A DNA stretch of 62,409 nucleotides, filler included, from Sphacelaria rigidula (lineage: Eukaryota): NCBI GenBank assembly GCA_964200075.2. It is 5 parts of 5 records of this genome, joined end to end, with 100 filler letters (N's around TTAATTAATTAA, not from the genome) between each part and the next. Parts side by side here need not be neighbours in the genome. Positions count along the whole stretch, not along the records: positions 12,504 to 24,906 come from CAXNAA020003811.1; 4 more parts are not named here. The stretch is one strand, 5' to 3'. The notes under the pieces are model-generated. The model was given only the letters and a program-made list of their open reading frames with translations. It ran no database searches and was not told the DNA's origin. Within the stretch, counting starts at the first letter, position 1. Each line of letters begins with the position of its first letter. Below, piece after piece: positions 1 through 50,010 of this stretch. A program made the translations under genes and the position numbers.

Positions 1-43
1 CCGTGATTGGGCAGGTCGCTCGAAGACTTGTTTATTATTATTT

Positions 44-73
44 CACTAACACAGGGTCAACCCTGTGTTAGTG
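44..73. repeat. Perfect palindrome/hairpin (14-bp stem, 2-nt loop)
   Basis: CACTAACACAGGGT-CA-ACCCTGTGTTAGTG. Confidence 0.9.
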
Positions 74-138
74 GGGGGTCGGTCCCAAAAGGGTTAAAGG
101 CATCCAATAATTTTTATGCACGTGTTCCCAAATGAAGG

Positions 139-670
139 CCGAGGTTACTAGTGTCCGGATGTTTTCTTTTCACTGAGTTTCACCGGTTTCTTTGGCCATA
201 CTGTGAGTCGCAAAAACTCCGGGTTTCGGAAAATTTCAACGTTTGCTCAAGACCTCAACGTGCCTGCTGTGAGGGGTAAAAGACGAAGTTCGGCACACGC
301 ATACCTAGAGGCAAGACCGAGGTCGCCAGTGTCCGGATAATTGGAGTTCCGGCCGATCTCATCCGTTTCTTGGGATCGTAAGCCGCAGAGATCGGCTGGG
401 AACCCCAGATTCTCGGAACGAATTCACGTTTTCTTCAAAACTTGACGCCAGAATTGATATTCAGGAGACAAAATTTGACACGCGTATTCCTGACGGCCAG
501 CCTGGGGTCGCCACTGTGCAGTTGGTCTGAGTTTCAGTTGGTTCAACTGATTTCTTGGGGTTATGAGCCGCCGAATATGGCGGTAGACGCCATCAAATCA
601 GTGAAACCCACCGGAATTCCCACCACCTCGACACTAGCGACCTCGGGCTTGCCTACAGGAATACATGAAT
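139..670. repeat. Degenerate ~180-bp tandem units plus one inverted partial unit; probably a DNA-transposon subterminal region
   Basis: The motif CCGAGGTCGCCAGTGTCCGGAT recurs near 139, 317 and 501. Its reverse complement (GACACTAGCGACCTCGG) is near 630. Confidence 0.6.
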
Positions 671-744
671 GACAATTCGGACCCCAACCATCGAAGCAGG
701 TGTGACATTTGCCCGCCGAGTAGGTGTTTTACACGTCCAACGAC

Positions 745-1660
745 CACGACTCTGAGTTGTTCAAGTCTTAGCCGTTTAATTGGCCGTCATTTTTCTATTT
801 TACTCGTAAGAGTCGACGCTTAGTCTTCCCTCATTTCTCGAATTTCGCTCCTAGGAGTCGACTCTGAGTCGTCCCTTATTTCCCGGATTCAGTCGTCGGA
901 GTCGACGCTGGGCCGTCCGTCATTTTCCGAGTTTAGCCGCATATCAACTCTGAGTCGTCCCTCATTATCCGAATTTAATCGTATGAAATGAAGGTCACGA
1001 CGGAAGAGTCGTTGGGCGCGTGAATCTACTCCCCCCAATTTATACAAAGTGGGCGTACTCATGGCAACGCACGGTGATATGCCGGGAGACGTTTGATCGC
1101 TTCGAGACCCAAGCAGTGGAGAGAGAGTGTCATGAGAGCATAGACCGTACTTGCACTTGCAGCAGCTTCATTGCGCAGGCGGTTCACAGATTGCGCGGGG
1201 TTTGACAGAAGATGAAGTAGATAAGTAAATGCCATGCCCTTCAACGAGGGCTACTCGCATCAAGGTTCCATGTGTTGTACTGTACCGTGGCTGAAGGGTA
1301 ATGCACGGTACTTACAGGATAATTCACTGGCTGCTCTTTGTGCCGAAGTATGTGCTGATCAATACGCATCCTTTCGAAACAAATGTATGAATATCGAATG
1401 TGTCAACCAAGGTACTCGCCCCCAGAGATTTTGATGACATCCCAACCCCACGAACCTGAATTTGCGTATAGATTCAGATGTGTGGGCGCCATTAAAGCTC
1501 ACCTTGGTCGCATGACTCGACTCTGAGTCACTCCTCGCTTTCCTCAATTTAGTCATTGCAGTCGACTCTGAGTCGTATCCCATATTTCGATTTCGATCGT
1601 AGCGGTGGACCCTGAGTCGTCGCTTCTTTTCCGACTTAAATTGTAGGAGTCGACTATGAT
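745..1660. repeat. Two clusters (~745-990 and ~1515-1660) of ~44-bp repeats with a palindromic GACTCTGAGTC core; probable non-autonomous DNA transposon
   Basis: GGAGTCGACTCTGAGTCGTCCCTCATTTTCCGAATTT-like units repeat on both sides of a unique ~500-bp middle. TIR and TSD were not resolved. Confidence 0.6.
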
Positions 1661-2343
1661 ATTGATGCAGCTCCCTTCAGGGCGTTCTAACTATTACAAG
1701 CCACTAAGGTGTGTATCAGAAACGCTCGTTTGCCCGCTATTTTTTCAATCTTACGCTTCTGGTACCTTGCAAGTCCTCGTTCGCTACTCTTTAGGGCATT
1801 CACCACAAGGCGTGTGACTCCGGAATTTTCCACGGGTGCGCAGGTCTGACAAATCCGCATTTAGGCAAAAGTATCAGATAAACACTGAGAATTTATCAAC
1901 CATGGATGGAAAATTGTCAGTCGGAAATCATCAGCCTAGAGGTCTCCAGATCTGAAGGGGCTGAAAGGGGGCAGCGGGAAGCATGTGTTTGGGGTTCTCA
2001 GACAATTGCTCGAATGCCTACAAGTAGAACACCGGCCTTAGACTTCTTCCGCCGATGGCTCAAAGGACTCTTTCTGCCAACAACAGCACCATGCCGGGCG
2101 ATGGCTCTCTGGGCCAGGACAAACAAACAGGAAACAAGACGATCTTGTTGTTATCCAGACACAGCCTGCCGTGCTCGATGTGCGCACCTCTCGTCTGTGT
2201 AGTAAGTGGCAGTACCGTTGTCCCATTCTGTACTTTAGCGCTTTCATGTACCTGATGGTTCGGCCAGCGTTTTATTTTATCTCCCTTGCCTCCATGTTTT
2301 TACCCTTCATACTGTGCTCTACGCCGTTTTTTCCCACGAGCAG

Positions 2344-2646
2344 ACGGCGACGACGACACTCTACAACACCAGGCACGGCCTCCGCCGTCATGATGGCGGG
2401 GCCCAACCAAGGCAAGCCGGCCTCCTTCTTCGCCGACTGGCCCACGTTGGAAGCGGAGGTGAAGGCATACCTTGCCGAGCGAGAAGCTGGGGTAGCCCCA
2501 AGTGAGGACGGAAAACCGCGTCGCAGAGACGCGGTGTTAGAGTTTCTCTCTGTGGATCCCGTAAAAATGGCTCTCGAGGGCGGCCCTCAAGACGTCGATC
2601 AGTATGAAGGGGAGGTGAACATACTTTCCTATTCCGAACTCACGCG
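2344..2646 (+). CDS. Gene 1 exon A: unknown membrane protein, possibly plastid. Start uncertain: in-frame ATG at 2246/2255 or an upstream exon
   Basis: Open frame ...MMAGPNQGK...NILSYSELTR. Pyrimidine tract plus CAG at 2341-2343 and donor CG|GTGAGA at 2647; phase 2 matches the next exon. Confidence 0.75.
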
Positions 2647-3274
2647 GTGAGAGATTACGACTTCCAACCCCCTCGGCCCGCTTTTTTTTTTGTCCTACCC
2701 GTTCTTGGCCCTTTGTCAAGAACTGGGCGTTTTCACGATGTGTACTCCTAGAAGGGGGGGGGAAGGGTTATACTTCTGCTGTAACTTCGAACCAGCAGGT
2801 GCACGGTGCGAGGTTGAGGTTGGTTTCGATTGATGTAATCTCTGTGGCGGGTTCAACAGTTGATACGCCTCTGACGCACGGAAGACATCGAGGGTCCTAC
2901 AGTAACTCGCTGTCTTGCTGACGCGGAAGTGGGAACTCGTAACAAGAGCCGCTACGTCCCCCGTGACTTTTTTTTTTACTCAAGCAGGAAAAAGCAACTG
3001 TCATGGCGGCAACTAGAATATTCGCGTGCAAAGTATAGAAAATGCGCGAGATGATATGATGGCAGGATAATGCTTTTTTTATAACAGGTCAGTCTACTCG
3101 TTACGTCAGTGTGCGCAGGTCATTTTGTCATTTCATACGCCGTTGGCACTCTTATCGAGGAGAACAGCCTACAACCGTGCACTAACCCACGTCTCCCGAC
3201 TGAATGACTATTTTACCCTAAAATTGACACGAATCATGCGTGCTTGTCAAACCGATGCGGATCTCTGGCTTCAG

Positions 3275-3454
3275 GTTTGGATACGATTATCTCATCGAGC
3301 CTATGATGGCGATTGGCGGTTACACGGCGGTGTCAGAGCGCATGGGCATTGCCCTGAACGAGCGGACTTTGAAGGATCGGGAGTATTACGAGATTCGAGG
3401 CATGAAGCTGACCCCTCAAAAAGTGGAAATCGACGGGTTCCTCACGCTCGGGAG
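3275..3454 (+). CDS. Gene 1 exon B
   Basis: Acceptor TTCAG|G, then FGYDYLIEPMMAIGGY...GFLTLGR, then donor AG|GCAAGT (GC donor, phase 2). Confidence 0.8.
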
Positions 3455-3800
3455 GCAAGTATTATCGATTTCCTCGTACTGTGGTTAATTGCTGGTATCC
3501 GTTATCGTCGGTGCAGATTGTTCTTCTTTTGATGTCGCGTTTACCGATATAAAGTCAGGGGCTTGGTCTTGTCACCCAGCCCCGAAATAAGCGGAATGAA
3601 CTAATCTGATGTTTTCCCTTGCGTTGGGTCAACGCAATACAAGAAGCAAGCCTTGACGTCATCGACACTGAAGGGCAGCCCTTCGTCTCTACATATATGC
3701 CCCCCAATTGCGCTAGCCTGCGCTATACACAGCTCGTGTATTTTTGGGTAGCACAGTCTTCTCCGGGGTGGGTGCAGGAGAGACGGTGTAGTGTTCTGAG

Positions 3801-4880
3801 TAGTGTTGCCTATCGAACCACCAATCCAGTTCGATACGATACGGCCTCGAAGCCGTTGATATCAATTTGATTGCAATAAAATGTGTTGACCGCAGCGAGC
3901 CGGGCAAGTGCACAGTGAGCGATCGAGCGAATGCGAGGGCGCTCGCTGTGCAAGCCCCTATCGCCCCTATCGCCCCCGGCTGACGAGGGGGGCCCGCTGG
4001 AGACACAAAAAAATGCAGTTATGCATTTTGCCTGATCTCGGCCTCATTTCTCATCAAACGCGGCCCCGTTGAAACCACTTGAAGTTAGCAGTGGTGGTGG
4101 ACCTATACTCGGACAAGATGTTGGAAAAATATAAGAAAGCATATCACATATGACACTGCTACTTCTGAATAACACGATGAGGGAGCAGCTCCTGGTTGAA
4201 ATCTTCACGTCAAGTGTCCTAATTTCTGCTTCAAGCCTTGTTGACCGCTTGCAGCTGCAAAATCTACGATGCACCATGCCATTGTGCGGAAAAGAGATGA
4301 AAATATGCTCGATGGTACGCTGTGGCTTCCACGTACAACATTGTTTTCGTGATATTGATAGTCTAGGATATGATTGGGAGTGAGAAGCGGTCAATTACTG
4401 AATGAAATAGTTTCTCTTCCGAAATGCTCCTCAGGGCCTTGTACCAGGCCCGACACGCTTTCTGCCGTAACTTGCCACTGAAGCCTTTCATATCCCTGGG
4501 TAACATATTGACGTGTAGCTGTAGGCACACGACAGTGATAGAGGCAAAGAAAAGCACACACATGATACAAGATTGTCAAGTTGAAGCGAATAATAAAACT
4601 CATTCTCAAACAACGCTACGCGAAATATTGTAGTACTTCAAACCACGAACACATTATGCACTCAGAAACACCAGCGCGTCCGCAAAGATATGTTGCCGAT
4701 AACTAATGCAAACACGATACACTTCTGCACAACTTTCGACAGTAATCCTCAACTCTCAACTGCAATAATATCCCGTCCATCCTCAATGATATCGAAACAT
4801 CGATAACATTTCGATACGATATTCGATTCGATATGTTTCGGTACGGTGTATGGCAACTTTCGGTCCGGTGTACAACACTA
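3801..4880. mobile_element. Non-autonomous hAT-type DNA transposon (1080 bp) in a gene 1 intron
   Basis: Termini TAGTGTTG...CAACACTA (imperfect ~19-bp TIR). Perfect 8-bp TSD GTTCTGAG at 3793-3800 and 4881-4888. Subterminal TCGATA repeats at both ends. Confidence 0.88.
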
Positions 4881-5064
4881 GTTCTGAGTATCGTGAGATT
4901 TGCATGGTTTCATGTTTGGTTTGCGCCCCGATAGTACCCAAAATATCATGGAACTGTTAGCCGCAGCTTAATTTTACGATGGTTGTTCTGGAAGTGCATA
5001 TGCTTTCAACTTGACGTCCAAATTTTGTCCTCGACTTCATGGTTGCAACCATCCATCCGTGCAG

Positions 5065-5713
5065 GGCGAGAGACGAAAGACTCGAATCCGTCGCAGACGT
5101 AGACCGCGAGGAAAAGCGAAAGGATCTCTTCAGCAAGCAAGCAATGATGGACAAAGACGCGCGCTCGCAGGCCTCCGAACAAGCATCTAAATCGAAGATG
5201 CTCAATGGCGCCCGCAAAAAGCAAACGTTGCGTTCCAACGCCTCCATCGTGAACAAGAACGAGAGCGGCGGTGGGAGCAGTGAGGAATCGTTCCGTGCTC
5301 CAGGTCTTCCCGAAGAGCTCAAGGGGCCAACTGCGTGGCAGGCGCCAACACCACTGGAAGGTGCGGCACCGCCGCAACCTTTGCTGCTCAATCTGCCGCA
5401 GCGGGTATATGCGGTTGCGGTGGTCGCTTGTTGCGCGTTGGCGTATGGACATGGTACCTCCGACGCTTTGGAAAGGGGGTATATCTCCTCAGATATACCA
5501 GCCACGGCGGAGACAGCGAGCCTATTTCTTGTTGGGTTGAATATTGTTAGTGCGGTGTTAGGTGCGTCGATCGCGAAGAACAAGAATCGGTCCGTCCCGT
5601 TGTGGGCGTTCAAGGGGTCTCTTGCGGGGATTACCAGTGTGCTTGAGCTCAAGGGGCTTCCAGATATTGTCTTGTCGCGGCCTAAATATGAGACGGGAGA
5701 TGATGCGGCATAA
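5065..5713 (+). CDS. Gene 1 terminal exon with 2-3 hydrophobic helices
   Basis: Acceptor GTGCAG|G in phase 2 continues RARDERLES. TM-like segments VYAVAVVACCALAYG and LFLVGLNIVSAVLGASIA are followed by KNRSVPLWAFKGSLAG. Stop TAA at 5711-5713. Confidence 0.8.
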
Positions 5714-6736
5714 TACCGCCGAGGTTTTGAACGTTCGTTTTATTTCGCGACGAACCGCGTCGGAAGCTTGATGTGGTTTCTTTAAGGTTGAGCCCGAGAG
5801 GCATTCGTGATCTTCAGCACACGGCAGGGTGGCGAAGTAATTTGGGAATGTTTGTGTTTTTCTCGTTTGGCGAAAAACTACTGCGCTTTGTTCGTAAGTT
5901 TCTCCTGAAGTGCAAGTCGCTGCCGTTGATTGATGCAGCAATACCCCCCCACACACACACGCACACTAGCCCCCAAAATGTCGCGAAGAAAATGGCCATA
6001 CAGCACATGACAGCTGATTTTAGACCGTATGTAGGTCTCATATGCGCGACATTGGCGAACACGATCCCAAGCGTGGGAGTTCCCAGCTGCTCGGTGTGCT
6101 CGGCTGTTGTCATTTTGATTCGTGTGGAGATATTGCCTCCTCAAACCAGTCAGTTTTCTAGGGGGGTGGGGGCGTGGGGGGGGGCTATCGCGGCATCACT
6201 CCGTTGCGCTTATAAGTAGAGCGCGATCCGATGATCGCGAAGCACGGTGAGTATTTGCTTATCATATGTGACGCGCAAGCACCTATGCTACCTTCGCCCT
6301 GCCGTACAAGACATCTTGACGCAAGCCTCGACTGCAAGACACTGCACTGCACCATTCCACTGATTGTGCTGTACTGTTGTTGTAGGCTTCTGTTTGGACT
6401 TGGAAAATATTGCTACCAGCGTCACTTCATCCTCGTCGACATACTCGTAGTTCTATCCAGAACATGAACTAATATCTTCGGCAGCTACCGTGATGGCACT
6501 ACGATCTTCCATAATACTACGGAAAGCATATAAGCAGCAGTTGCTCAATCTGATGAGGCTGCAAGGACCGCGCCTACGAAGTACAGGATAGGCGATCGAT
6601 CCCGCATGAAAATGATATCTTGGAGTGAACTGGCCGTTACAATGAGAACTCCAAAAGTCATACTCCATCTTCTCGAGCACACTCGATCTGGCAGACTTCA
6701 AAATATTGCCCTGTTACTTGGTGGAAGAAAAGACAG

Positions 6737-7013
6737 ATGCGTACCCTCGTACTTGAAGCCGTCACGGCCCTGCTGTGCGCAATCCTGACTGTCGGCGATG
6801 CCTTCATCACACCATCATTCCGCACAACGCCGTTCGCGTTGCGTCCAAACCGGGCTGTACACTCGGTGACCATGTCATCACGGTCGATCGAGACGACGAG
6901 GCGGGATTTCCTTGAGAATGCAATAGGTGTGGTCACTGCTGGAGTGCTTGGATCATCGCTATTGCTACCTGCCCCAACGTTTGCTGCTGCTTCTGGCAAG
7001 TCGGACCGAGAAG
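6737..7013 (+). CDS. FKBP: FKBP-type peptidyl-prolyl isomerase exon 1 (signal peptide, transit peptide and twin-arginine lumen signal)
   Basis: MRTLVLEAVTALLCAILTVGDAF (ASAF-like), a Ser/Thr/Arg-rich transit peptide, then TTRRDFL plus a hydrophobic stretch ending TFAA. Donor AG|GTATGT, phase 1. Confidence 0.9.
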
Positions 7014-7609
7014 GTATGTAGGAGAACTAAAAGTTGCAAAGTTGCAGTTGCTGTGTTGGTAGTGTTCGCTGTCTCCATTCCACCATGTTGTCTAAACTAC
7101 TGACTGTTGTCGAGAACTGTACGCTGTACTGTAGAGTCAGTACGAAACAGTCAGTTCGGTTCATGTTTGCTGCTAGGGACGGAGTATCTCGCATGTCGGT
7201 TCATGTTCAACACAGGCAGCGCGGTTGCTGTGGTATTCTCCGACATATCCAAGCGGGGCAGAGTAGGTATATGTCGCTCCTTTTTATTGGTGGTCAATAT
7301 CGCCCCCCCCCGTATTGTACTATGGTAGGCAGCTGCTCACGATGTTGTACTCGATCGTGTCACACGGCGTCAGTAACGCGTTTTGTTCTGACACTGACGT
7401 TGGGTGATCGTAACACGGCCAACAATCCACGATCAGAAAGCATAGGTCACTCTGAGCTGCGTGCTAGTATGGGGCCGGTTTCTTGTTTAGATATGTTCTT
7501 CGTAATTTTTTTGTGAAGCTACTATTTGCGTACTGTCTGTTTCAAAGCCACCGCGCAATTCCACTCACTCAATGCACTGGGCATAGCAGTACCGTAAGCA
7601 ATGTTTCCG

Positions 7610-9396: not shown

Positions 9397-10420
9397 CAAG
9401 GGCAGGTCGAGTAGAGTATTATCAATTCTCAGTATTTTTGAAGAGTCATACTTCTAGTACTCAAAAATTGAGTAGAGTATTCGAGGCTGTACTCAACCTC
9501 CTCTAAATTTGAGTAGAGTATTTGAGGCCGTACTTGACCTACCCAAATTTTGAGCAGGTTATTTGAGGTCATACCCAATCTACTCGAAAGTTGGGTGGAG
9601 TATCTGAGGCCGGACCCGATGTACCACCGCTAACTCTCCCATGGAGGAGTCAAATGTGCGGCCAGTAGAGTCGCTCATTTTGATAATACCTACCAGACAA
9701 TCCGTCTACTCGACTACTCAATGATGATGAGTAGCGCTCTCTACTGAAAGTGATATCGAAGGAGTTGAGCAGGTGTTGAGTATGTACTTCCATGGGTGGG
9801 GGCAGGTGAGCTAGAGTAGGTAGGTTCATTCACCTGCACGCTTTTTTAGTTTTTTTATGGCCATCATTTGCTCATACTCATTGTACCATGACGTACCGCC
9901 ACTCATCTAATTGCCCATGTATTCATCACAGTCTATGAAGTGACGTCACGAAGTCACCGACGGTCACGGTTGCTCATCATGCCCAAGTGATACTATATAG
10001 TCGAGTATTAGTGAGAATGCTTACTCAATATTCGAGTAGAGTATTGGAGGTCGTACTCGATCTACTCAAAATTGAGTAGAGTATTTGAGGCCGTACTCGA
10101 CGTACTCAAAATTTCAGTAGAGTGTTGAGGTCATACCCAAGTGATACCTTATGCTCAAGTATCAGTGAAAGTGCTTACTCAATATTTGAGTAGAGTAGTG
10201 GAGGTCGTAATCAATCTACTCAGAATTTGAGTCGAGTAGTTGAGGCCATACTCAACCTACTCAAATTTTGAGTAGAGTATTTGAGGCCGTACTCGAACTA
10301 CTCAAAAACTTCGTAAATTATTTGAGACCGCACTCGACCTACTCGAAAATTGAGCAGAGTAAATACTCGGGTATTTTACTCGAGTACTCAAAAGCACATA
10401 CTCTACTCGACCTGCCCTTG
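9397..10420. mobile_element. Non-autonomous hAT-type DNA transposon (1024 bp) in FKBP intron 1
   Basis: Perfect 23-bp TIR CAAGGGCAGGTCGAGTAGAGTAT. 8-bp TSD AAATATTC at 9389-9396 and 10421-10428. ~41-bp subterminal repeats GAGTAGAGTATTTGAGGCCGTACTC at both ends. Confidence 0.93.
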
Positions 10421-12403: not shown

Positions 12404-12503
12404 NNNNNNNNNNNNNNNNNNNNNNNNNNNNNNNNNNNNNNNNNNNNTTAATTAATTAANNNNNNNNNNNNNNNNNNNNNNNNNNNNNNNNNNNNNNNNN
12501 NNN
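12404..12503. other. Artificial contig spacer (N44-TTAATTAATTAA-N44)
   Basis: The same 100-bp spacer with a six-frame stop linker recurs four times. The segments between spacers are 12403, 12403, 12402, 12402 and 12399 bp, consistent with size-sorted contigs. Confidence 0.98.
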
Positions 12504-12504
12504 C

Positions 12505-15500
12505 GATTCATTCACTGATTGGCCGCTTTTCACTCTCAATCGTATCATCTACTCTCAATCTCACGAGAACACTGTTCTTAGTGATGATATGTGTCAAACA
12601 TACGTTCGCAATAGTATCGCTCAGCAATTTCCGACGCTAATGCCGTCTTTGTTTCCGGGCGCTTTGACGCACAAAGAGGTGCCTTACGCCTCCGTAGACG
12701 CGATGTGGAATGCGCTTGTAGATCAGGAACATAATTTGACGCCTGCCATTCGTGGCGCACAGTGTTTTTCTGGGTCTTCGCAGACCTTGCGTGCCGCACC
12801 AACGAGTACCTCCGGGCTTCGTGGACGCACTCAGACTTTCTCATATAATACTTGGACACCAAACTCTGTCGGTGGATCGGCCATGCCTGTTTGTAACAAA
12901 AGAGACCCGTTCCGTGCAAGCTTTGATGCTCGGCCTTTTTCGGCAGACACTTTTGATGACGTTTATGTCGTTTCCACGACTGCTTTAATCACCGATGACC
13001 CACATTTGTGGACCCCCTTGCTTTCGCCTTCGGCTCGCAGGGATGCTTTTCGTCGCCATGCTAACACATGCATTAACTGCAATGGTACCGGCCACAGTAT
13101 GCGAGATTGCGCTGAACCTTGCATCAATATTTTTTAGCTCATGAACCCTGAACTTCAAAGCAACAGGCAGGCGTGGCGCCGATGGCAAAAACGCATGCGC
13201 GAGTATACTCCACCTTCTCGCCACCCTCGCCAGCCTTACCAAAATAATAGCGACTCTCGCTCAAATCGCGACCGCCGCCACACCACTAACACAATCTCAG
13301 GTCCTCGCCATAGAGATAGTGTTTACCGCCCTTCTCAGTCTTCGCGTGGTCATCACCAGCGAACAGGGCCGACTCACAACAACACCAACCCCGATGCCAG
13401 AAACCCTGGTTCTTTCATGATGGATCGCAACGACCCATGACACGCCGACGACGGCGTGAAGTCTTCGGCGCCGCCAATAGCAGACTCGAAGACTCATCCA
13501 ACACACAACACCGCTCGGGTAACAAAACGTTCTCACCCATCACTATTCAGGAGATTTAATGACGGCCGCTCTTCTCGACCCCCGTCTTTATGTTCATCTA
13601 CGCAGCGTAACCGTTGTGTTGACTCACAACCCAGCTGTATGCTTGGCACCAGAATTGGTCCTCCGGAACTAGGTATAAATCTGAGGTATGGGAAGACCGA
13701 CCGCGGATCCTTGAGGCACAGGCTTCCCTCAACAACCGCACGCACCGGTTGTAGCAGGCTTCCTTCACCTAGTTCTGGCGTTGATAGTTCGAAACTGACC
13801 GCTTCAAACCTTTCGACTCCCACCCGGCCTGATCGTAGTCCTTTTTCGCGCCACTCTTCTGCTGCGAAACTACCCCGACATACAGCGGACAACACTCGTC
13901 CTCTTTCACATTTAGCAGTGCCCTTTGTACCGAGCTTGCCAGCGGACAGTCCACAAGTTTCGGCCGAGCATGCCCCGATGTTGACAACATCACCTCAACT
14001 GGGCGCAGTTGCAGTTTCTCAAGAAGTCTTGAAAGTTCCCAGTCATTTGTCATGGCACGAAAGGAAGTCTCGTCGTCATGCCCTCACGGAAGCGCGAGCA
14101 TTGACACGTCCCCCTCCCGTCAGAGGAAAATTCCGACCTCATTCTTCCCAAAAAGCGGCGACTTTGAGCTCGATGACATTGCCAGGCATCCTAGAGGAAT
14201 CCAAATCGGACCTTTCAGACGGTACCGCACCCTCCACCGATTACCCCTGTCACACTTCGCAGCAATCTCTATTCAACAATGATCCATGTTCTTCCAAGCC
14301 AGTGGTCTACGAGATTGATCAAAATCATTATTCATGCTGCTCTTCACGATCGGATCCGACCCCCACGATGTCTACCGATACCTTCGAACCCCCCGCGGAT
14401 CACCCGCCATCCGTTTTCACGGTCAGTCCAACTACTCCTGACCAATTCACCTTATCTGAACATGGCTCTGACCTTGTTGGTGGTAAGGTATCCGTTGATC
14501 CTGCCACCTTCACTACCCGCGTAGCATTACACTGCGGCCCTTACGCCACCGCGCGTGCCAAGTGCGTCTCGTTGTCAGATAGCTGAAGTCCACAGACATT
14601 CATCAAAGAATCCATGTGGAATCATCTGAAGCAGACTAGCGCTGCTTCCGATGTCTGCGAAATAACTACCCAACCTCGCGTTTGGGGCGGTTTCGGCGAC
14701 TCAAATTCACCCTTGACGACACGAAAATCTGTTCGTCTTAGTGTGCAGTTTTTCCAGCACGATACACGTTCGGCAAGTCTCGCAGTCCGGGCGTACATCG
14801 TCCCTGATAGCACCATGCATAATGCTCTCCTTCTTGGCAGATAGCTACATGCGGTTCGACCAACGTACGTACCGCACCCTCCTACCATTATCGCCTCAGT
14901 CGGGGCCTCGTGGAGAGCTCCAACTGGAACACTTTGGTTCCCTCAATGGTGCCTTAGCCTACAAAAAGAATGAGCAGGCTTCTGGAGCGGCTTACCATCT
15001 TCGGTACAATGGCAGTTCCGGCGTCACCCTTCCTGACGAGCCTCAACTCTTGGAAGTTTCGCTTGTTCGCCGCAACGGCATGCCTGCCCTCACCGGCCAC
15101 TACCTTGCGGAATTACTGCCCAAAGTCGGTGCGCCCGCTGGCACTGAGCATTTTGTCTCGGACGGCGACCAACTCCTGCCTCTCACAGGCCATGCTAAGC
15201 TCCTGCTAAATTGGAACCTGGCGATGTCTTGGGCATCGCCGCGGCTCCTCTTATGCACATTCCTCTGGAAACCTGTGTCGCCGACCCTCCGGCGCCTGCT
15301 CTTACGCCGCCGACTGACGGTTTTGTCCACTGCGTCCATGAGCCATACTTCGATCTCTCCGCCCCATCGCCGACTCAGATTTCTGCGGTGGAATCCGACA
15401 GACCCCCTGCTAAACCTCCTGATGAAGTGCTTCAACGCTTGTCAGTCGATTCTCGGGAACAATTCTTGCAAATGTGGCACCAACTTCCCCCTCATTTACG

Positions 15501-18500
15501 TGATATCCATTTTGACCTACATGATCCGGGCTGGGAGCCCGCCGTCATCCAAGAGCTACAAGATGTTCTCCTGGAATATCAGGACAGATTTTCGCTATCC
15601 AAGACGGATCTCGGGCATTGAAAAACATTGCCATTCGAGATAACACTGCAACCTGGCGTTTCGCCAATCTCATCTCGACCATATCGAACGAATCCCCTCC
15701 TCACCAAAAAAGTCAATGCTATTTTGGATCCCTACTTAGGAGCTGGTCTGATTCAACACTCGTCTTCGCCATGGGCCTCACCCCTCGTGTTCGTCCCCAA
15801 AAAAGATGGCAATACACGCATCACCGTGTACTACAAACGGCTGAACCGCGTCACTGTCGTGGGAAAACTCCCCATACCTCGCATCGACGAAGTCTTCGAC
15901 TCTCTTGGCGAAGGAAAAATATTCAGCACTTTCGATCTGGCATCTGGATTTTTCCAAAATGCAATTCACCCCGATATAGTTCCCTTGACAGCGTTCTGTA
16001 CATCTTCAGGGCTTTTTGAATGGCTTCGTATGCCACAAGGCGCTGCCACCGCACCTGGCTGCTTTCAACGCCTCATGCAACGCGTTACTGACGGTCTCGA
16101 GCATGTTATCATGTATCTAGACGATGCTATCGCTTTTGATGCCTCCCCCAAGGCGCATGTTCGCACTCTACGGGAATTTCTCTCCCGCTTGCGTACACAC
16201 GACTTGAAATTGTCTCCATCCAAAGCTCGACTCGGAGCCACTGAATTGGATTTCTTGGGACACTCTATCTCTTCTGCTGGATTGCACCCAGACACGAGCA
16301 AGGTCAAACCTATTACTGATATGCCCATGCCCACCCATATTTCCCAGCTTCGCTCGCTGTTAGGTGGACTTTCCTACTATCGCAAATTTTTGCCCAACTT
16401 GTCCAAGCGGATCCGGTCCATCATAGATTTACTGAAGAAAAACGTCCCGTTTGTCTTCACTAAAGACATGGAGGCCACAATCTGCGAACTACTCAAAACG
16501 ATGACCGAAAAAACGGTTCTTTGTTTTCCGGATTGGGATGCGGTACAAGACGGCTCACGTCTTTTCCAACTACACACCGATGCTAGCACCGATGGGTTTG
16601 GCGCCGTTTTGAACCAGCCTCAAGTGGATGGCTCTGTCCGACCTATTTTGTACATCAGCCGCGCAACCCTCCCAAACGAGGCAAACTAGAGTCCACTCGA
16701 ACTCGAAGGTGGAGTCATAACTTGGGCTATTAAAAGGCTTCGACAGTACTTGTTCCACGTGCCTTTTCACATCTATACAGAGCACGGAGCTGTTGAACAA
16801 CTCGCTAAGGTTGGAGAACATAACCCCCGCGTACAACGGTGGTTGGAGTTCTTGACTGCCCACCAGTACACTGTTAAACACCGTCCGGGCAAAACCAACG
16901 GCAATGCTGACCTCCTTTCGCGATTGCCTCTACCTCCTACAGCGGTAGATTTTAGTCCCTCTTGCCGCTTGACTGAACCTGACGAACCAGGCGTTTACCC
17001 CATTCGGCGTTTTTCTACGCCCATCTACGCACTCGACCTACAATGCCCCCAAACAGGTCTGCACATGGATGGCCCCCGCCCTCTGCCCCCTGATACAGTC
17101 TTGGATGGGTTAGCGCCCACGGCTGCTGATTTTGCCGACTTCCGCACTTTCGGCCCTCGCGCGAACATCTCGGCGCCGCCACCACCAACTATTCACTTCA
17201 TCTCCGACAACACGCGCTCTCGGTCGGCAGCTCGTGCTAATTCTTCGCGGGCTGTGATGCCACCACCGTCGCCGGCCGCTCGTAGTAATGCGTCGCCGCC
17301 GCCGCATCGTGCCCCCACGGGCCGTACCACGCCTCCAACCACCGACCGTATGCCCAGTGTTATACCAACACCGCCCGCGCCCCTTGTGCGCCCCACGCGC
17401 CGCTCGTGTTCACCAGTTCGCGCTACACCCACGCCTTCTTTTGGGAATTTCCAAGCACCTGCGCCTCTGACTCGCAATACACATGCGTCCGATCCACTCC
17501 CGGGTCAACCCGTTGACGTCGGCATATCTGCTTCTTCGCCTGTGCCATCCCCTCCTGAGCCACCGTGCCTGGTCGACTCTCCGACTAAAGGCCAACTTCG
17601 GGAATTTCTCGCTAGCTACTCTCACCGCGATTGGGCTCGCGACCAACAACAGGAACCGCTCTGCCGTGCGACAATGCGGTACTTGCGGCTTAACTGCCCC
17701 ACCCCTTTCCCGGCTGAGATCCTGACTCCCGTAGGCACTCTACCCGCCCCCGCCGCCTCTGATGTGCTCGAGCAGGCACGCGAAGGTACCCTCTTCACGA
17801 CTGACGAGGACGTTCATCTGCTTGTTCGCCGATCCAACTCCCAAGTGGGCACGGCTGCCGCAGTAAAAACTGCCACTTCGGCACATATGCGCCATGACGC
17901 CCCAGTTCGCATCTACGTCCCATCATGATGCGTCCGTGGGTCATGAAAGGCTGTCCCTCTGGTTTGTCCTGCCACTTAGGCGTCACGCGCACGTCAGCGC
18001 TCCTTGAACGTTTTTATTGGTGGATTGGCATGGTAGCATCCACGCGTTTTTGGGTCCACCGATGTTTCATATGTCAGGCTCGCAAAACCTCTCGACAGAC
18101 TGTGCGGTGGCCGGTGATTTCCATGGCGCTTCCAAACGCTCCTAGTCACTTCGTATCGTTCGACTAATTCGGCCCTTTACCCTCAACTGACCGTGGTAAT
18201 ACCTACATTCTACTCTTCACCGACCGCTTCAGCCGTCACGCGGCTATGTATGCTGTTCCTGTTAGCGATTTCACTGCTGCCGGCACAGCGGACGTTCTCA
18301 TCCATGACTACATTAAGCACTAGGGCTGCCCGAAACGGCTCCTCTCCGACAATGGTCAACAATTTTGCTCCGAACTCTCGGATGCTTTGTACAAGCTCCT
18401 CGGCATTCGCAAAATTGCCACGAGCGCCCACCACCCTAACGGTAACAGTGGGACTGAACGTGTGAACCACACCATGGCTCAAATGCTATACATGGTCGTC

Positions 18501-19780
18501 AACGACCGACAAAATGATTGGGACCTTCATCTCTCGCATGTCATGTTGTCTTACAACAATTCAGTTAACGCGGCTACGGGCCTCTCGCCCAACGAGCTGC
18601 ATCTTAGACGCTACCCTCGTCTGCCCATCACCGTTCTCGAACGACATACCTTCGATGGTCAACAAGGTCTGGAACAGGATCAGATGTCGCACCACGACCT
18701 CGACAGGCTCGTCAGCGCAAAGCTTTTACCTTGGTGCGCGAACAACACGCTATCAACGTCTCACGCCTTGAGAGATCCAATACCACCCTCTACAACTTGA
18801 TGTACAAACGCCCTGCTTGGAAGATCGGCGATTGGGTCTGGGTCTACAACAGCTTGTCCACCATCCGTCAAGGCGCTGACCGTACTGCCCAGGCAACAGT
18901 CTTGAAGACGAAACTGTTCCTCAATTGGACGGGTCCGTTCAAGATTCTCATAGTCGGACCCTCGCCGACATCTCCTGACGGCAAGCCCGTTGGCGACAAA
19001 CTCCTCTACCTCGACTTACCTCGTGACCTCCAGGGGCACGACGCTAAATCTCGCGTCTCTGTGCATCGTTGCAAGCCCTTCACGAACCCGCATGACACCA
19101 CGGACATGCCTCAATACCTGCCTGCAGGCCTCACCCAATACGTGCTCAACAGCTACTCAACAAAATCTCCACCGTACCACGTTATCACCGATGACGTCAC
19201 TGAACAACCTCTCCGCTTGGCCGTGTTCCACATTTCCGGCCACCAAATCACTCGAGGCCCTGGCGGCAAAGTTGCTGTCATGTACAAGACACACTGGCAA
19301 GGTCTTCGGCGTGCGTCTTGGGAACGACGCGAGTCCGACCTTCAACTGCACCGTCGTGCCATCCTTCTCTATTGGACACAATCCCCACAGCAACAGCTCG
19401 CTGACAACAAGGGATATCGCAACATGAGACGCGGCGCCGCAGCCCGCGAACTTCACCGCGACAAAGGACTACGTTTTGTAGCCGATGGTTACGAACTCGT
19501 ACCCACCAAACAATGGGACGAGAAGATTCGCGCAAAACAACAACCGCTCCCCAAAGGTGCCTACTTGTGGTATAAGGGCAGTGATTACCTCTGGTGGCTA
19601 GGTCAGATCCACTCCGTCGATGCCCTCGCGGTCGACACGTGCATCGTGCGTTTCCTCGACCACCCTGGCCCAGTTCAGCTCACGCTTCGCCCCGATTTTG
19701 ACACCACCAGCCCATCCGCACCCCGCGGTTCCTGGTGCCTACAACGCTTCAAGTCACACGGCTTACGCCGAGGTCTTTAG
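12505..19780 (+). pseudogene. gag-pol: G1 gag-pol with multiple stops and frameshifts
   Basis: Stops at 13135, 13438, 14584 (inside the DSGS protease motif), 16687, 18165 and 18321, plus several frameshifts. RT/RNase H ORF at 15628-16689; integrase C-terminus at 18731-19780. Confidence 0.92.
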
Positions 19781-20434
19781 CGCAATATCGATCGTACACA
19801 CGACATCAATGCGCCATCTTGAGTTCTATCTCTTCGCACTCCCTTTCTCGCAATTTGTATCTACCCTCCCAGTTTGGTTCTGGTACTTCCTTTGCCCCCC
19901 CTCAGGTACGCTCTACTCTTCACTGCTTTACCTACGCTGGCTCTCGTATCGCGGCTCATCACTGCCCTCATCAACCTCTTTAACGACTTCTTCTGGATCC
20001 CCTTCGCCCCCTTCCATTGGCCCCTACGCTGCCGCCGCTTTGTCTGGCTGGCACTCGACCCCATTCGGGTCCTTGAGTTTTGTCTCCTGCTTGAGACTAC
20101 CACTGTGTCCTTTGCGGGATTTTCCTTTGCTTTTTATCCAGCTAGCGCGTCAAAGCATTGTGTGCTTTTTCCGTTTGTTCGCTAGCTCACAGCTTCATTG
20201 TGTGCTCCTGCGCAGCCAACCGCAATTGCGTAATTGCGCTTTTTGAGGCACCTTTGGTTTTTCTTGTTTGAGGTGTGGGAGGATCGGGCACCAAGCTGGT
20301 CATTGCCCTCTTGTTTTTTTTCTTTTCCTTTTTCGCGGTGTCTCCTCATGACTTGATGGGTGAGACAAGCCTCAATTTTAGTTGCTCTGGAGATTTCATC
20401 GCAACTCAAATATAGGTTCGTCTGGGTGGGTGAG

Positions 20435-21014
20435 TGTCATGAGGAAGGAAGATAGAGAGGCGTTATTGGTACCCACAGACAACTTTGGGGCAGGTTGGCT
20501 TACAGATCATTCCATCTGTCCACGGGAATGCTCCCATAGTTCTGGGAAGATTAGTGTACAGACTGGTGTACCCTAGCTGAGGGAAGATTAGTGTACAGAC
20601 TGGCGTACCCTAGCTGGGGAAGAGTAGTGTACAGATTGGTGTGCCCTAGTCCCGGGGAGGCGAAACGCCTTCCCGGGCCGAGTTCAAAAATAGGTTTCTC
20701 TACCGTGCCTCATGCACCCTCGCTCACTCTTAAGCTACCCTTCGAGCCGGACCTTCTGCTCCTACTGTTACCTTTGGTGAGAACAGTGTGCTGGGCGATC
20801 AAGGGAATAGTCAGTGAGAGATTAAGAGATATCAAGCCTTTGAGCTCCCTTTTGTTTGGTTGCTACTGTAACCAACAGTCACGTGAATCTGCACGTGTGT
20901 ATCTGCAGCTTGTTTTACTCGGACACCTTGCGCGTTTATGCATCTATCCAAGCTTGCAGCACATAGATCATACCTAGGAGGGTGTGGAACCTGTCCCTAC
21001 CTCTCCGTATTACA
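20435..21014 (+). repeat. Probable 3' LTR of G1 containing a 36-37-bp tandem repeat x3 (20544-20655)
   Basis: Purine-rich GGGTGGGTGAG precedes TGTCA, and the segment ends ...TTACA. Repeat unit GGGAAGATTAGTGTACAGACTGGTGTACCCTAGCTG. No partner LTR in the contig. Confidence 0.6.
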
Positions 21015-21034
21015 GGTATGCGTGAACCAGCCTG

Positions 21035-22295
21035 TATAACAATTCAGTCAATGCCGCTACGGGATTGTCACCGAATGAAATTCATATTGGTCGCATGCCT
21101 AGGTTAGCTTTAACGGTATTCGAACGGAAAAATCAGGCGGACATTAGAGTCTGGATCGTGATGTTGTAGAGTATCATTTGTCGGTTAGCAATCGTCTTCG
21201 TCTTGCATATAAACTGGTACGAGAACAGAACCAAATCAATTTGGCTAAGGTGGCCAGGGCGAACTCGATTTTGGATGATGTAATACATAACCGCCCGGTG
21301 TGGAAGGTAGGCCAATGGGCATGGGTATATAACGATGTGAAGACCATCAATCAAGGGGCTAGCTCAAAATTATCCTCTTTGGACAAGGTGTTGAAGGCGA
21401 AACTATCCTTGAATTGGAGTGGTCCTTGGGAAATTTTAGCTGTTGGTCAAAGCGCTACCGCACCCGACAAGAGTCCGGTGGGAGCGAAACTTTTGTATTT
21501 GGATTTTCCCACGGATGAACCTGGTTTGAAACCGAAAAATCGCGTCTCGATGCTACGATGCAAACCGTGTATCCCCCCTCATGACTCCTCGGACATGCCC
21601 AAACAACTGCCGCTGGGGCTTAGCCAGTATGTGTTGACCAAGCATGCGATCAAAACTCCGCCGTATCATATGACGGTCGAGGATGCGGACGCACCCCTGA
21701 AACGCGTTGAGGTAGATAGGATTTCGGGCCAACAACTGGTTCGCGGTCGTGTTGGTAAGATAGCGGTAATGTAGCAACACACATTGGAAAGGTATCATGC
21801 GTGTTTCATGGGAGCGTGAAGTTGATTTGCGTCATTTTGGTCGGGAAATATTGCTGTACTGGGTAGGAGATGCCGTCCAACACCGCCCGGTGAATAAGAG
21901 ATATCGGTCGATGCACGAGGGAGCTGCCGCTCGGGAACTGGGACGTGAGCACTCAGCGCGGTTTGTTGTAAAAGACTATAGCCTTCTTTCGCATTCACAG
22001 TACATGCAGTCTTTTCACGGACAACGCTTGCCGAAGGGGGCATACTTTTGGTATAAGGCCTTGGATGTGGTGGTTAGGTAAGATTCATTTGATCGATCCT
22101 GCATCTGACGACTCCTACTTTATCCGCTTCCTCGATAACCCAAGCCCCGTCAAGATTCGCTTGGATGATGCCTACTACACCGAGGTGCCGACCGACCGCC
22201 GAGGATCCTGGTGCCTCCAACGACACGACCAAGGCGATCTCGACACAGCCGTTCTACGTAACACGGACACCGCTTGGGATGCAGAAGACTCATGA
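21035..22295 (+). pseudogene. Second, diverged Gypsy G2: integrase C-terminal fragment with chromo-like and Tudor-like tail
   Basis: YNNSVNAATGLSPNE, WKVGQWAWVYN, LNWSGPWEI, SWEREVDL, GAAAREL, WWLGKI, RGSWCLQ are collinear with G1. Frameshifts and stops are present. Confidence 0.92.
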
Positions 22296-22394
22296 TGCCA
22301 CATCCGAGTCTGCTTCCCCATTCACCTTGCGTAGTGTACCATGGTCGAGTCGCTTGTCTTGCGCCGTAGCGTCGTTGGAAAGCCATGTGTTCCC

Positions 22395-22900
22395 CCTCCC
22401 CCCCCCTTCCATTTTTTTTTCGTACTGATTAGCCCCGTGCTTGTAGTGGTTGTATTTCGTATTTCGTATTTCGTATTTTGTATTTTTTTCTTGTGTATGT
22501 GTGTGTTTTTTTGCTTTGGACCCTGACTTTGTGTTTGTTTTTCTTGGCTTTGCGTCATTTTGTTTCGATTTGTTCTTGTCTTTGTTTCTTCTTCCGTTTC
22601 TTTTCTTCTCTTTTCGCCTCGTGTTTTGTTTTCGATTTTTGTTTGTGTTAGATGAGTAATTTTCTTGGTTATTTCTGGGTTTATCTGGCAAAGTACAAGT
22701 AACGATCGTTCCATTCCTGAACCCGAGTCTGGAACCTTGAACCTCCGTCCTCCGCGCCGTACATTCACGGCCATTCCGTATACTGAAACGGTTGCCACGA
22801 GTTATTTTTTCTTTTTTTTCCATTTTTTTCTTTCTTTCTTTGTCGTACGCATCTTTTGTCTTGTTTTGTGTATTATGCTGTTTTTTTTGTTTGTTTTTTC
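22395..22900 (+). repeat. T-rich low-complexity tract with (TATTTCG)n in the G2 3' region
   Basis: Visible composition; it produces spurious K/N-rich antisense ORFs. Confidence 0.8.
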
Positions 22901-24906
22901 GGTCGAGAGTTTTCGGAGCGAACGCTGGATATACCTGACCCCCCGGTCTGGAATAACTGCGCTCTAGCCCAATCGCTCCGTACACGCATACCGCCTCCCT
23001 CTTCGGGATTGGTCGTGACGTGTCTCCTTTTTGCGTGCGCACCACTTTGCGTTTTATATGAACATGGGCGATAGTAACCGAAGCCGAGTGTCTGAAATGT
23101 TTTGAAATTCTTGGCTGAAACTTTTGACCCTACTCGCTTCGTACACACGATAACCGCTCCCGTCTACAAGGACGGTCGCCACGTGTTATTTTTCTGCTTC
23201 ATATTTCTGATATTTTGTTTTCGCTGTTGCCCAGCGTACTACTGGTTTTGTATTTATATTGTTTTGGCTTTTGCACCCATGTCGGCAAATTCGCCATGAG
23301 TGTCCCAACGTTCCTGACCCTCGAGTCTAAAACACTTGGCCTACTTTTTTTTCGCGAGCCCTCAACACGTGTGACCGACCTCGTTATAGGAGGGTCACGT
23401 GTAATGCGACGCAACGGATGATTTATACTTTGGTGATGAGTAAGGTACAACGAGGTCACCACTGGCCGTGTCGTACGTAGCGGTGTGGAGGAATTGTCAT
23501 TGAAGTCACGGTATAATTGGTTGCAAACATCTCCTCATACAGGACCATTACGTAGCGTGAAGGGATAGATTGCTCTTCCGGAACCGTCCGTTCCGGCATG
23601 TCGATATTCGACCATTGGTACAGCCTACAGGCCCAGAGTCCGCCACTCGCTATTTTCTTTGTCACTTTTTTCTGGTTTTTTGCGTACGGTTACCCGCCCA
23701 TAAAATCAGTCGGTGGTGTTTTGTTTTCATCAGTCAGGAGTTATTGGACGAAGTAACGTGACGTTGCGACCGGCTATGGTTTTTACTCCAGTTTGTGTTC
23801 GAGCCAGTCCCGTTTTAGTCCGAACGGGCGAATACTGTGAGGGGTGGACTGCGTTGGTCCTCTCTGTCCCGTGTATTTGTCGTGGTTCAGAAATGTGTTG
23901 GGCGATCCACCTCGGACTACGCAGTAGACCCGAAGGTTGTGTATTGACTCAACTACGTTTCTTTTGACGAGTACGGACACCCGACCTCACAAACCGGCCG
24001 GTTGTTTTCGTATCTCGTCGTGCGAGGGAAAAAAAAAGTGCTGCACGACTGGATCATCACCCAGACGTCCCTAGCAAGTCGTTGCTCTCACAAACATGTA
24101 CCGACAATGAACTCACGTCAAACGGGTTGATTTTTCCGTATCATGCGTATTTAGTTTTTTTCAACGTATGGTTCTAGCGGAAAACTACCTTTTTCGCGAC
24201 GAAATCGGCTGTACGTTAATGGCTTTTGCTGATTGACTGGGACGAGTGATTAGCATGAAATCGGTTATCGGAGTGATCTAATGCCTTGGCGGCCTTGCTT
24301 GTATCTTTTACCAATGGACCGAAACAAATTGGACATCCGGAAAAAAGTAAACCATTATAGTCATGGTATAGTTATGGCAGGGTATGATGATCGTTTCGAT
24401 TATGGGTCTCTGATTTCCTGTGACTGTTCCGGAAATTCTGACGGCATTCTGAGGACACTGCAATTATCTTTTTTTGTATATGGTTTCGATTGTTGATTTT
24501 TGATTGTTGATTTTTGGATGACACTTTCTACAATAGCCTCCCCTCCAAAACAGGCCAAAAAGGGCATCAAAGAGTTGCCCATATACGGCGTCAGAGCTGG
24601 TTTAGGATTCCACGGAACACTGCAGTCTTTGAGGTGTGGGCGTGATAGCTGGTTGAGGACTGCAAGGCGCGTCCTGAACCAGCGATACTGGCGAAAATGA
24701 CAATAAGCGCGACACTTCCCATCTACTAGGTGCGCGCGGCTTATCCTACTTTGACGCTTTTTATGCTGTTCGAAGGCTGGCGATTCGTCATGCGGGCAAT
24801 GTTAGAGCTGGAGGCACTCAGTTCCCCCCCCTGGACAGAAGCCCCCCCTCCTCCATGTCAAATCCACATGGAGGTTGGGGTCTCGTGGTGAGATACCTGT
24901 CAAACC

Positions 24907-25006
24907 NNNNNNNNNNNNNNNNNNNNNNNNNNNNNNNNNNNNNNNNNNNNTTAATTAATTAANNNNNNNNNNNNNNNNNNNNNNNNNNNNNNNNNNNNNN
25001 NNNNNN
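24907..25006. other. Artificial contig spacer
   Basis: N44-TTAATTAATTAA-N44. Confidence 0.98.
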
Positions 25007-37408: not shown

Positions 37409-37508
37409 NNNNNNNNNNNNNNNNNNNNNNNNNNNNNNNNNNNNNNNNNNNNTTAATTAATTAANNNNNNNNNNNNNNNNNNNNNNNNNNNNNNNNNNNN
37501 NNNNNNNN
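37409..37508. other. Artificial contig spacer
   Basis: N44-TTAATTAATTAA-N44. Confidence 0.98.
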
Positions 37509-49910: not shown

Positions 49911-50010
49911 NNNNNNNNNNNNNNNNNNNNNNNNNNNNNNNNNNNNNNNNNNNNTTAATTAATTAANNNNNNNNNNNNNNNNNNNNNNNNNNNNNNNNNN
50001 NNNNNNNNNN
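49911..50010. other. Artificial contig spacer
   Basis: N44-TTAATTAATTAA-N44. Confidence 0.98.

Follow-up and report, generated by a model that had tools for sequence, protein, structure and literature searches.

In a stretch of DNA of 62,409 nucleotides from Sphacelaria rigidula (assembly GCA_964200075.2; this whole stretch is called the window below), we found the end of the pol gene of a dead Ty3/gypsy retrotransposon of the long terminal repeat (LTR) class, copy G1, in which the integrase extends past its GPF region and forms a compact module, about 190 residues long. Structural models and sequence comparisons support the view that this tail is formed by a chromodomain, two conserved helices and an extended Tudor barrel. 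The module is conserved in the family to which the copy belongs and, in those copies that are active, it probably tethers the integrase to chromatin. The window consists of five pieces of about 12.4 kb each, joined by four spacers of the form N44-TTAATTAATTAA-N44 (12404-12503, 24907-25006, 37409-37508 and 49911-50010), and neighbouring pieces may be non-adjacent in the genome. The finding is located in the piece at 12504-24906 (CAXNAA020003811.1), and the features of the element described below are on the plus strand.

Predicted folds of the integrase tail

Frame 2 of the plus strand contains no stop between 18608 and the TAG at 19778-19780 (390 codons), and the translation of 18731-19780 gives 349 residues followed by this stop. 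The integrase C-terminal region with the GPF motif (18710-19207, with LNWTGPFKI at 18920-18946) lies upstream of the reader module and aligns to all full-length homologues. The motifs of the tail then follow as VFHISGHQITRG (19223-19258), MYKTHWQGLRRASWE (19280-19324), LLYW (19364-19375), YRNMRRGAAAREL (19415-19453), GAYLWYKGSDYLWWLGQIHSV (19556-19618), CIVRFLDHPGPV (19640-19675) and RGSWCLQ (19724-19744). An earlier note, made from the sequence, had described this region as a gypsy integrase that ends in a chromodomain followed by a linker and a second, Tudor-like reader domain. The eight motifs that it quoted are all present, each within about 10 bases of where it had placed them.

In order to examine the folds, we obtained AlphaFold2 models for the tail of the window copy, using an alignment of 60 family members, and for the apparently intact relative L001. 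The model of the window copy has a mean predicted local distance difference test score (pLDDT) of 92.3 and a predicted template modelling score (pTM) of 0.83, with no segment under pLDDT 50. The L001 model has corresponding values of 91.9 and 0.80, and its order of secondary-structure elements matches that of the window copy, which begins with three strands followed by a helix (residues 14-65) and continues with a second helix (76-93), a short strand plus helix (103-116) and five strands (127-189). The high pTM suggests that the two folds form one body.

The first fold (19208-19381, model residues 9-66) has the three strands and the C-terminal helix of a chromodomain, which were modelled at residues 14-24, 30-38, 45-47 and 50-65, respectively. 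We compared the models to known structures by Foldseek and by VIA-align, a structural aligner that is independent of Foldseek and was run on 48,161 chains. VIA-align matched the first fold to the chromodomains of Chp1 (Z 6.8, root-mean-square deviation (rmsd) 1.4 Å, 53/55 residues), dHP1 (Z 6.3, 51/53) and Polycomb (Z 5.7, 49/51, 31% identity). For the L001 model, Foldseek gave the MPP8 chromodomain with probability 1.00 and 33% identity, and Chp1 also with probability 1.00. A profile of the 60 family members, run against 177,635 PDB chain sequences, matched the Swi6 chromodomain (E 0.02, profile positions 34-90) and, at E 0.37, the MPP8 chromodomain. The chromodomain-like reading of this segment in the earlier note therefore held.

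The same note took the stretch that starts with LLYW as a linker; instead, it is conserved and folds as helices. The second helix, YRNMRRGAAARELHRDKG, stands between the two folds (19409-19462, model residues 76-93) and is assigned as helix by DSSP with block pLDDT of 89-96. A86 is kept in 141/159 homologues, R88 in 139/158 and A85 in 121/159. The next segment is an N-terminal extension of the Tudor fold (19481-19540, model residues 100-119) that consists of the strand GYELV and a helix, modelled at residues 103-105 and 108-116. Several of the VIA-align matches begin at residues 99-103.

The last fold is a five-strand barrel of Tudor type (19544-19756, model residues 121-191; strands 127-131, 137-145, 152-157, 163-167 and 184-189), and its closest structures are the PHF19 and PHF1 Tudor domains. 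These rank first when the window model is run by Foldseek against the PDB, with probability 1.00, E-values of 0.016-0.03, rmsd of 1.6-2.5 Å over 46-48 columns, 27-29% identity and target-normalised TM of 0.63-0.68; the best of them has E 0.016, rmsd 1.6 Å over 46 columns and 28% identity. The PHF19 Tudor was again first for the L001 model (E 0.011, probability 1.00). VIA-align matched residues 115-191 to RDM15 (Z 6.0, 56/58), PHF19 (Z 5.7, 56/57), SMN (Z 5.1, 55/56) and TDRD3, and in the search with the family profile, positions 142-182 matched the PHF19 Tudor at E 0.0075-0.0095, with PHF1 at an E-value of about 1. The segment that had been called Tudor-like from the sequence thus models as a Tudor barrel in both copies. 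We regard the assignment of the folds as supported because coverage is near-complete at low rmsd, the independent sequence matches agree, and the L001 model replicates the result.

The curated Pfam thresholds were reached by neither Chromo nor any Tudor-clan family on the window protein. Chromo appears below threshold in one of five full-length homologues (E 0.098, 13 bits, cut-off 25.1) and Agenet on P0176 only (E 0.064, 14.2 bits, cut-off 27). A protein atlas gave leads only (0.78-0.83), mostly to Chromo and Tudor-like families. These results show that annotation at the Pfam level under-reports the reader content of brown-algal Gypsy elements. We also considered known tandem readers. Spindlin, the SAWADEE domain of SHH1, SGF29 and the tandem chromodomains of CHD gave rmsd of about 3.3-19 Å or low probability; no known tandem-reader arrangement was recognised among the Foldseek rows, which does not establish novelty. 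A whole-module match in BFVD was likewise rejected, as Foldseek gave short single-domain rows only and the full-length rows had rmsd of about 10-20 Å.

Conservation of the module and its occurrence in other sequences

We used phmmer with the translation of 19184-19777 (198 residues) as query against 1.84 billion representative proteins. With E<=0.001 there were 429 proteins, of which 160 reached E<=1e-10 and 6 reached E<=1e-30; most matches are short fragments, as expected of decayed transposon copies. Among the 35 long homologues, 24 aligned to residue 344 or beyond of the window protein (P0001), including full pols of 1618-1848 residues. Of the remaining 11, most end near the end of the protein model, continue into sequence that is unrelated (P0176) or represent chimeric gene models. 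The homologues with names are two proteins of Ectocarpus sp. CCAP 1310/34 and one Undaria gene model. A metagenome search with P0001 found one locus only, L001, which is distant (57%). Positions 1-7047 of this locus, which comes from a metagenome contig, are an uninterrupted gag-pol-like frame of 2349 codons, of the NADAR Gypsy lineage, that is open at both locus ends and contains NADAR (E 1.8e-45), reverse transcriptase (RT), RNase H, integrase and the complete tail module. L001 therefore appears to be an intact and possibly active copy.

As a measure of constraint, we calculated the mean pairwise identity of six full-length pols in blocks of 40 residues. The chromodomain has an identity of 0.66, the helices 0.50 and the Tudor 0.50-0.57, compared to 0.55-0.76 for RT, 0.62-0.78 for the integrase core and 0.33-0.49 for the spacer between RNase H and integrase. 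The conservation of the module is close to that of the enzymatic domains across a very large and diverged family. We also aligned contigs of four public runs to 18731-19830 at >=80% likeness, of which X1 and X2 are from one organism and X3 is labelled algae metagenome. The numbers of contigs (1531 in X1, 1146 in X2, 1067 in X3 and 67 in X5) show that the family is highly repeated. A variant place was considered private to G1 if at least 90% of the X1 depth had another letter, and a shared polymorphism otherwise. The codon-position test covers 40 listed places among 210 variant places. Within these 40, the 24 shared variants fall on codon positions one, two and three as 5/2/17 (binomial p 1.9e-4), and those inside 19211-19830 as 3/2/8 (p 0.035). 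The 16 variants private to G1 are distributed as 6/6/4, as expected for decay after insertion, and several private changes strike Tudor residues that are conserved in the family (model residues 153, 160 and 173). The sole indel among the listed variants is of 3 bases.

These values bear on the explanation that the tail is a neutrally drifting relic, or a captured host fragment, whose frame is open by chance. The window copy is indeed a pseudogene with frameshifts and a stop, and its protein has no Pfam match, which is what such a relic would show. However, the block identity of the module is well above that of the spacer and the shared variants are mostly at the third codon position, and so the neutral evolution that would have spoken against the earlier note was not observed. 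The 429 homologues, the coverage of the whole tail by 24 of the 35 long ones, the retention of the module in the uninterrupted frame of L001 and the agreement of two confident AlphaFold2 models on the fold also disfavour neutrality, and we consider this explanation extremely improbable.

A second copy in the same piece, G2 (21026-22280), is a related fragment that is truncated at the 5' end and frameshifted, and it includes the integrase end, chromodomain, helices and Tudor. In tblastn searches with P0155, P0162, P0180 and L001, its main segments have 44-52% identity in three frames. With P0001 as query, 21214-22223 has the same order of segments as G1 with 48-52% amino-acid identity, also in three frames. 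Since G2 keeps the segment order and phmmer finds 429 homologues, the G1 tail is more than a chance reading.

Parts of the module were also seen in proteins other than pol. P0076 (828 residues), P0187 (832 residues) and P0081 (612 residues) have a C-terminal extended Tudor and no chromodomain; they match the window at 19457-19798, their N-terminal part resembles a coiled coil, and they contain a stretch rich in Ser and Arg. In P0076 and P0081, the similarity to the module sets in at the N-terminal extension of the Tudor (19481). Homology between these two spans their full length (E 5e-62 at 29% identity), and the Tudor is by far the most conserved part; a word-based search for relatives of P0081 gave P0081 alone. 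In P0029 (626 residues), another non-pol N-terminus is followed by chromodomain and Tudor. These four proteins may be host genes, open reading frames (ORFs) of other elements, or gene-model chimeras. In P0012 (TIMP, WSC) and the Undaria protein P0177 (cNMP-binding, protein kinase), host domains are fused to pieces of the tail, and both are probably annotation chimeras that arose from transposon fragments.

With P0155, P0162, P0180 and the polyprotein of L001 as tblastn queries, the pol remnant of G1 was delimited to 14392-19822. Between 14392 and about 19800, the remnant and full-length pols are collinear, and the reading passes through frames 1, 2, 1, 3 and 2. Because it carries at least four frameshifts as well as in-frame stops, copy G1 is dead, a pseudogene that cannot work. 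It has the Ty3/gypsy order of pol domains, that is RT, RNase H and integrase (HHCC, DDE core and GPF/Y region). Pfam finds RVT_1 (E 2.6e-26) and RT_RNaseH on the ORFs at 15622-16689 and 16690-17928. The integrase regions are collinear with those of the full-length homologues. The zinc-binding domain and catalytic core lie at 17919-18701 in frame 3, with 59.6% identity to residues 991-1250 of P0155, in which Integrase_H2C2 is at 990-1047 and rve at 1063-1163; the Pfam match of rve on the ORF at 18324-18800 is weak. Between RNase H and the zinc-binding domain, 16900-17900 encodes a poorly conserved spacer of about 300 residues rich in Pro, Ser, Thr and Ala.

The TAG at 19778-19780 is premature and private to G1. 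Beyond it, another 13 codons can be read before a TGA at 19820-19822, and tblastn alignments of homologues pass through the TAG as far as 19792-19804. In run X1, 57842/58005 depth units of the contigs of other copies have a different first letter at 19778, and the contigs of X2, X3 and X5 are similar in this respect. The codon at 19324-19326, which adds an Arg in WERRESDL, is present in G1 but not in most other copies; its 3 letters are left out in 37017/61745 depth units of X1. A CCHC zinc knuckle of Gag type, CINCNGTGHSMRDC, was seen at 12985-13137, where the piece begins and upstream of the G1 pol. LTRs of G1 were not found, and self-comparison of the piece at 12504-24906 gave no long direct repeat; the 5' LTR is missing because the piece begins inside gag. 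One purine run is present at 20441-20452. Unrelated to the finding, the preceding piece has two blocks of direct repeats with 41-base spacing (9417-10383) and a pair of 97-base repeats (9977-10227).

Methyl-lysine cages and the proposed role of the module

We located the chromodomain cage positions by HMMER alignment to Swi6 and counted residues over the homologues covering each column. The cage reads L12-W38-L41 where HP1-type chromodomains have Y-W-Y, with W at position 2 in 105/119 homologues. For the Tudor, the comparison was made to the PHF19 cage, which we take to be W50, Y56, F74 and Y80, a numbering checked against the printed PHF19 alignment. Two of its four equivalents are aromatic in the tail: Y56 corresponds to W138 (100/122) and F74 to F157 (91/116). 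The nearby residues W129 (112/137), Y/F130 (109/137), W137 (109/127), W184 (72/83) and D159 (93/115) are conserved. To judge from their conservation, W129, Y/F130, W137 and W184 might substitute for the missing cage residues. The earlier note had proposed that two Royal-family modules read histone marks, and had named the lack of an aromatic cage as a ground for giving up the proposal. Both folds are supported, but this ground applies in part: the Tudor keeps half of its cage aromatics, and the chromodomain pattern is L/I/V-W-L/I. The reading of marks is something we can only infer, because both cages are incomplete.

We propose that in active copies the module would tether the complex of integrase and complementary DNA (cDNA) to chromatin and thereby bias the choice of insertion sites, by analogy with chromoviruses. 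The Tudor would supply, or add to, the recognition that a cage-poor chromodomain alone could not give, and the combination of a chromodomain that lacks a full cage with a Polycomb-like (PCL-like) Tudor would fit a shift of recognition to the Tudor. As ligand, a histone tail carrying methylation is one possibility, and a chromatin protein or nucleosomal DNA are others. Among histone marks, H3K36me3, H4K20me3 and H3K79me2 are the candidates because H3K9 and H3K27 methylation is largely absent in brown algae.

Several observations weigh against this proposal. The window copy is dead and has no NADAR domain. On P0001 and on the translation of 19184-19780, Pfam found no family at E<=1; the Foldseek E-values are 0.011-0.04, with none <=0.001, and the VIA-align Z values are all below 8, a range that is common for that tool. 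The codon-position test rests on just 40 of the 210 variant places. In the chromodomain cage, position 1 is L, I or V in 70/81 homologues (F in 3) and position 3 is L or I in 99/122 (F in 6). In the Tudor, the W50 equivalent is A, S or G in 103/136 and the Y80 equivalent is P in 92/109, and in the diverged branch P0056/P0075, W138 and F157 are replaced by Q and M/L. As the residues stand, with both cages incomplete, the canonical methyl-lysine signature does not indicate reading, although reading is possible.

The incomplete cages are also the starting point of the main rival explanation, a cage-less adaptor through which the integrase would dock to a chromatin protein of the host or to nucleosomal DNA or RNA, and which would read no mark. 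Docking of this kind has parallels: Ty5 integrase reportedly docks via Sir4, and the C-terminal SH3-like domains of retroviral integrases contact DNA and histones. P0056/P0075 lose the aromatics of W138/F157 yet keep W137, G182, W184 and C185, a pattern that suggests conservation of the structural core more than conservation of the cage, and group II chromodomains are described as also lacking aromatic residues 1 and 3 (PMC3605345). Foldseek rows of the L001 model to retroviral integrase (probability 0.2-0.4, rmsd about 20 Å) would agree with an adaptor and carry very little weight. However, for both folds, the relatives of known structure that lie nearest are methyl-lysine readers, and the W129, Y/F130, W137, W138, F157, D159 and W184 kept in the Tudor could form a non-canonical pocket; moreover, no partner is known. 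We therefore consider a pure adaptor possible but not probable.

It is less likely still that the module serves mainly in the assembly of the integrase. The first domain would then be a dimerising, chromoshadow-like domain and the Tudor an extra C-terminal domain that stabilises the intasome. Chromoshadow domains are built with two C-terminal helices, and the module has a second helix after the first and lacks cage residues. HP1 chromoshadow domains do align to the model (9cea with Z 6.3, rmsd 2.5 Å and 54/60 residues; 8jzw with Z 6.0; 6fto with Z 5.0), but the chromodomain fit is better, with rmsd of 1.4 Å vs 2.5 Å, and the sequence profile matches chromodomains (those of Swi6 and MPP8) and not shadow domains. 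We regard the assembly role as quite unlikely.

Returning to chromatin tethering, a more specific version can be put forward only tentatively, and as a whole we find it rather doubtful. The tail would be a two-part reader of brown-algal chromatin, which has no 5-methylcytosine, no H3K27 methylation and mostly no H3K9 methylation. With help from the cage-poor chromodomain, the PCL-like Tudor would bind H3K36me3, H4K20me3 or H3K79me2 and steer integration to that mark, and the extended Tudor would also have moved between the transposon family and non-pol proteins of the P0076/P0081 type. If this were true, the Tudor would be a lineage-specific chromatin module common to host and parasite.

Comparison with known elements and readers

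The clearest cases of transposons selecting their landing sites are those in which a chromatin reader is fused to the integrase. PRC2 is absent from brown algae (PMC13076208). According to the accounts in PMC13076208 and PMC12477816, these algae have no H3K27 methylation, H3K9 methylation was mostly undetected, H3K36me3 is found on active chromatin, and H3K79me2 and H4K20me3 are found on repressed or repeat chromatin. As described in the same two sources, the marks read by classical chromodomains are missing from brown algae, yet the Gypsy elements of these algae retain reader domains. A very abundant family with a chromodomain that lacks two of the three cage residues and a conserved Tudor is a testable candidate for targeting in such chromatin.

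Four Gypsy lineages of Ectocarpus, all with chromatin-reader domains, are described in PMC12477816 (Genome Biol 2025). Three end in a chromodomain, and of these, one (Gypsy-12_Ec32) carries a NADAR at the N-terminus in addition; a separate lineage, that of Gypsy-10_Ec32, bears a C-terminal Tudor, with no chromodomain mentioned in its description there. The ECR-1 lineage has a chromodomain only. The chromodomain lineages are given as unrelated to chromoviruses or Chronos. In the literature found, to the extent of the text available, this is the only paper that describes a Tudor domain in a transposon. The suggestion of the earlier note that the region holds an undescribed system was therefore overstated, since chromodomain lineages and, separately, a Tudor lineage are published. 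The tandem of chromodomain and Tudor was not found in the literature in so far as its text was accessible, and the supplementary alignments or tree of PMC12477816 may already show it. Novelty is limited to this tandem architecture, in a lineage already known for its chromodomain.

Of these lineages, the one with NADAR and chromodomain is the nearest. Because L001 and P0180, an Ectocarpus sp. pol with NADAR at E 1.9e-40, carry this domain, G1 appears by sequence to belong to the brown-algal NADAR-chromodomain lineage or to sit beside it. The kind of element, the host group and the position of the chromodomain after the integrase are the same. There are two differences. The main text of PMC12477816 names a chromodomain only, whereas a Tudor follows in the present tail. 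Also, NADAR was not matched by Pfam in P0155, P0162, P0166 and P0173, the closest full-length relatives of G1, and tblastn gave no NADAR match in G1 itself, to which P0180 aligns only from residue 177 and L001 from residue 439, downstream of NADAR. The Tudor lineage of Ectocarpus similarly has a Tudor-type reader at the C-terminus of a brown-algal Gypsy pol, but no chromodomain is described for it in the text of that paper, and the comparison is by description and does not imply homology of the Tudors.

Chromoviruses (MAGGY of group I; the plant elements Tekay, Reina and Galadriel of group II) likewise have a chromodomain past the integrase GPF region. In contrast to the present tail, in which two helices and a Tudor follow, they end at the chromodomain or a CR motif. 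The chromodomain of MAGGY is reported to direct the element to regions with H3K9 methylation (10.1101/2021.11.30.470311). The L-W-L cage pattern of the tail chromodomain fits the definition of group II, whose members are described as seen only in plants (PMC3605345). For the last domain, the best structural and sequence match is to the Polycomb-like Tudors of PHF1, MTF2 and PHF19, which are H3K36me3 readers. The tail barrel has 24-29% identity to the PHF19/PHF1 Tudors at rmsd of 1.6-2.1 Å for most chains and shares with them a GK(I) turn as well as a strand of the form (V/L)xFxD. It differs from them in that only two of the four cage positions are aromatic, a strand and a helix are added at the N-terminus, and the domain is part of a transposon integrase.

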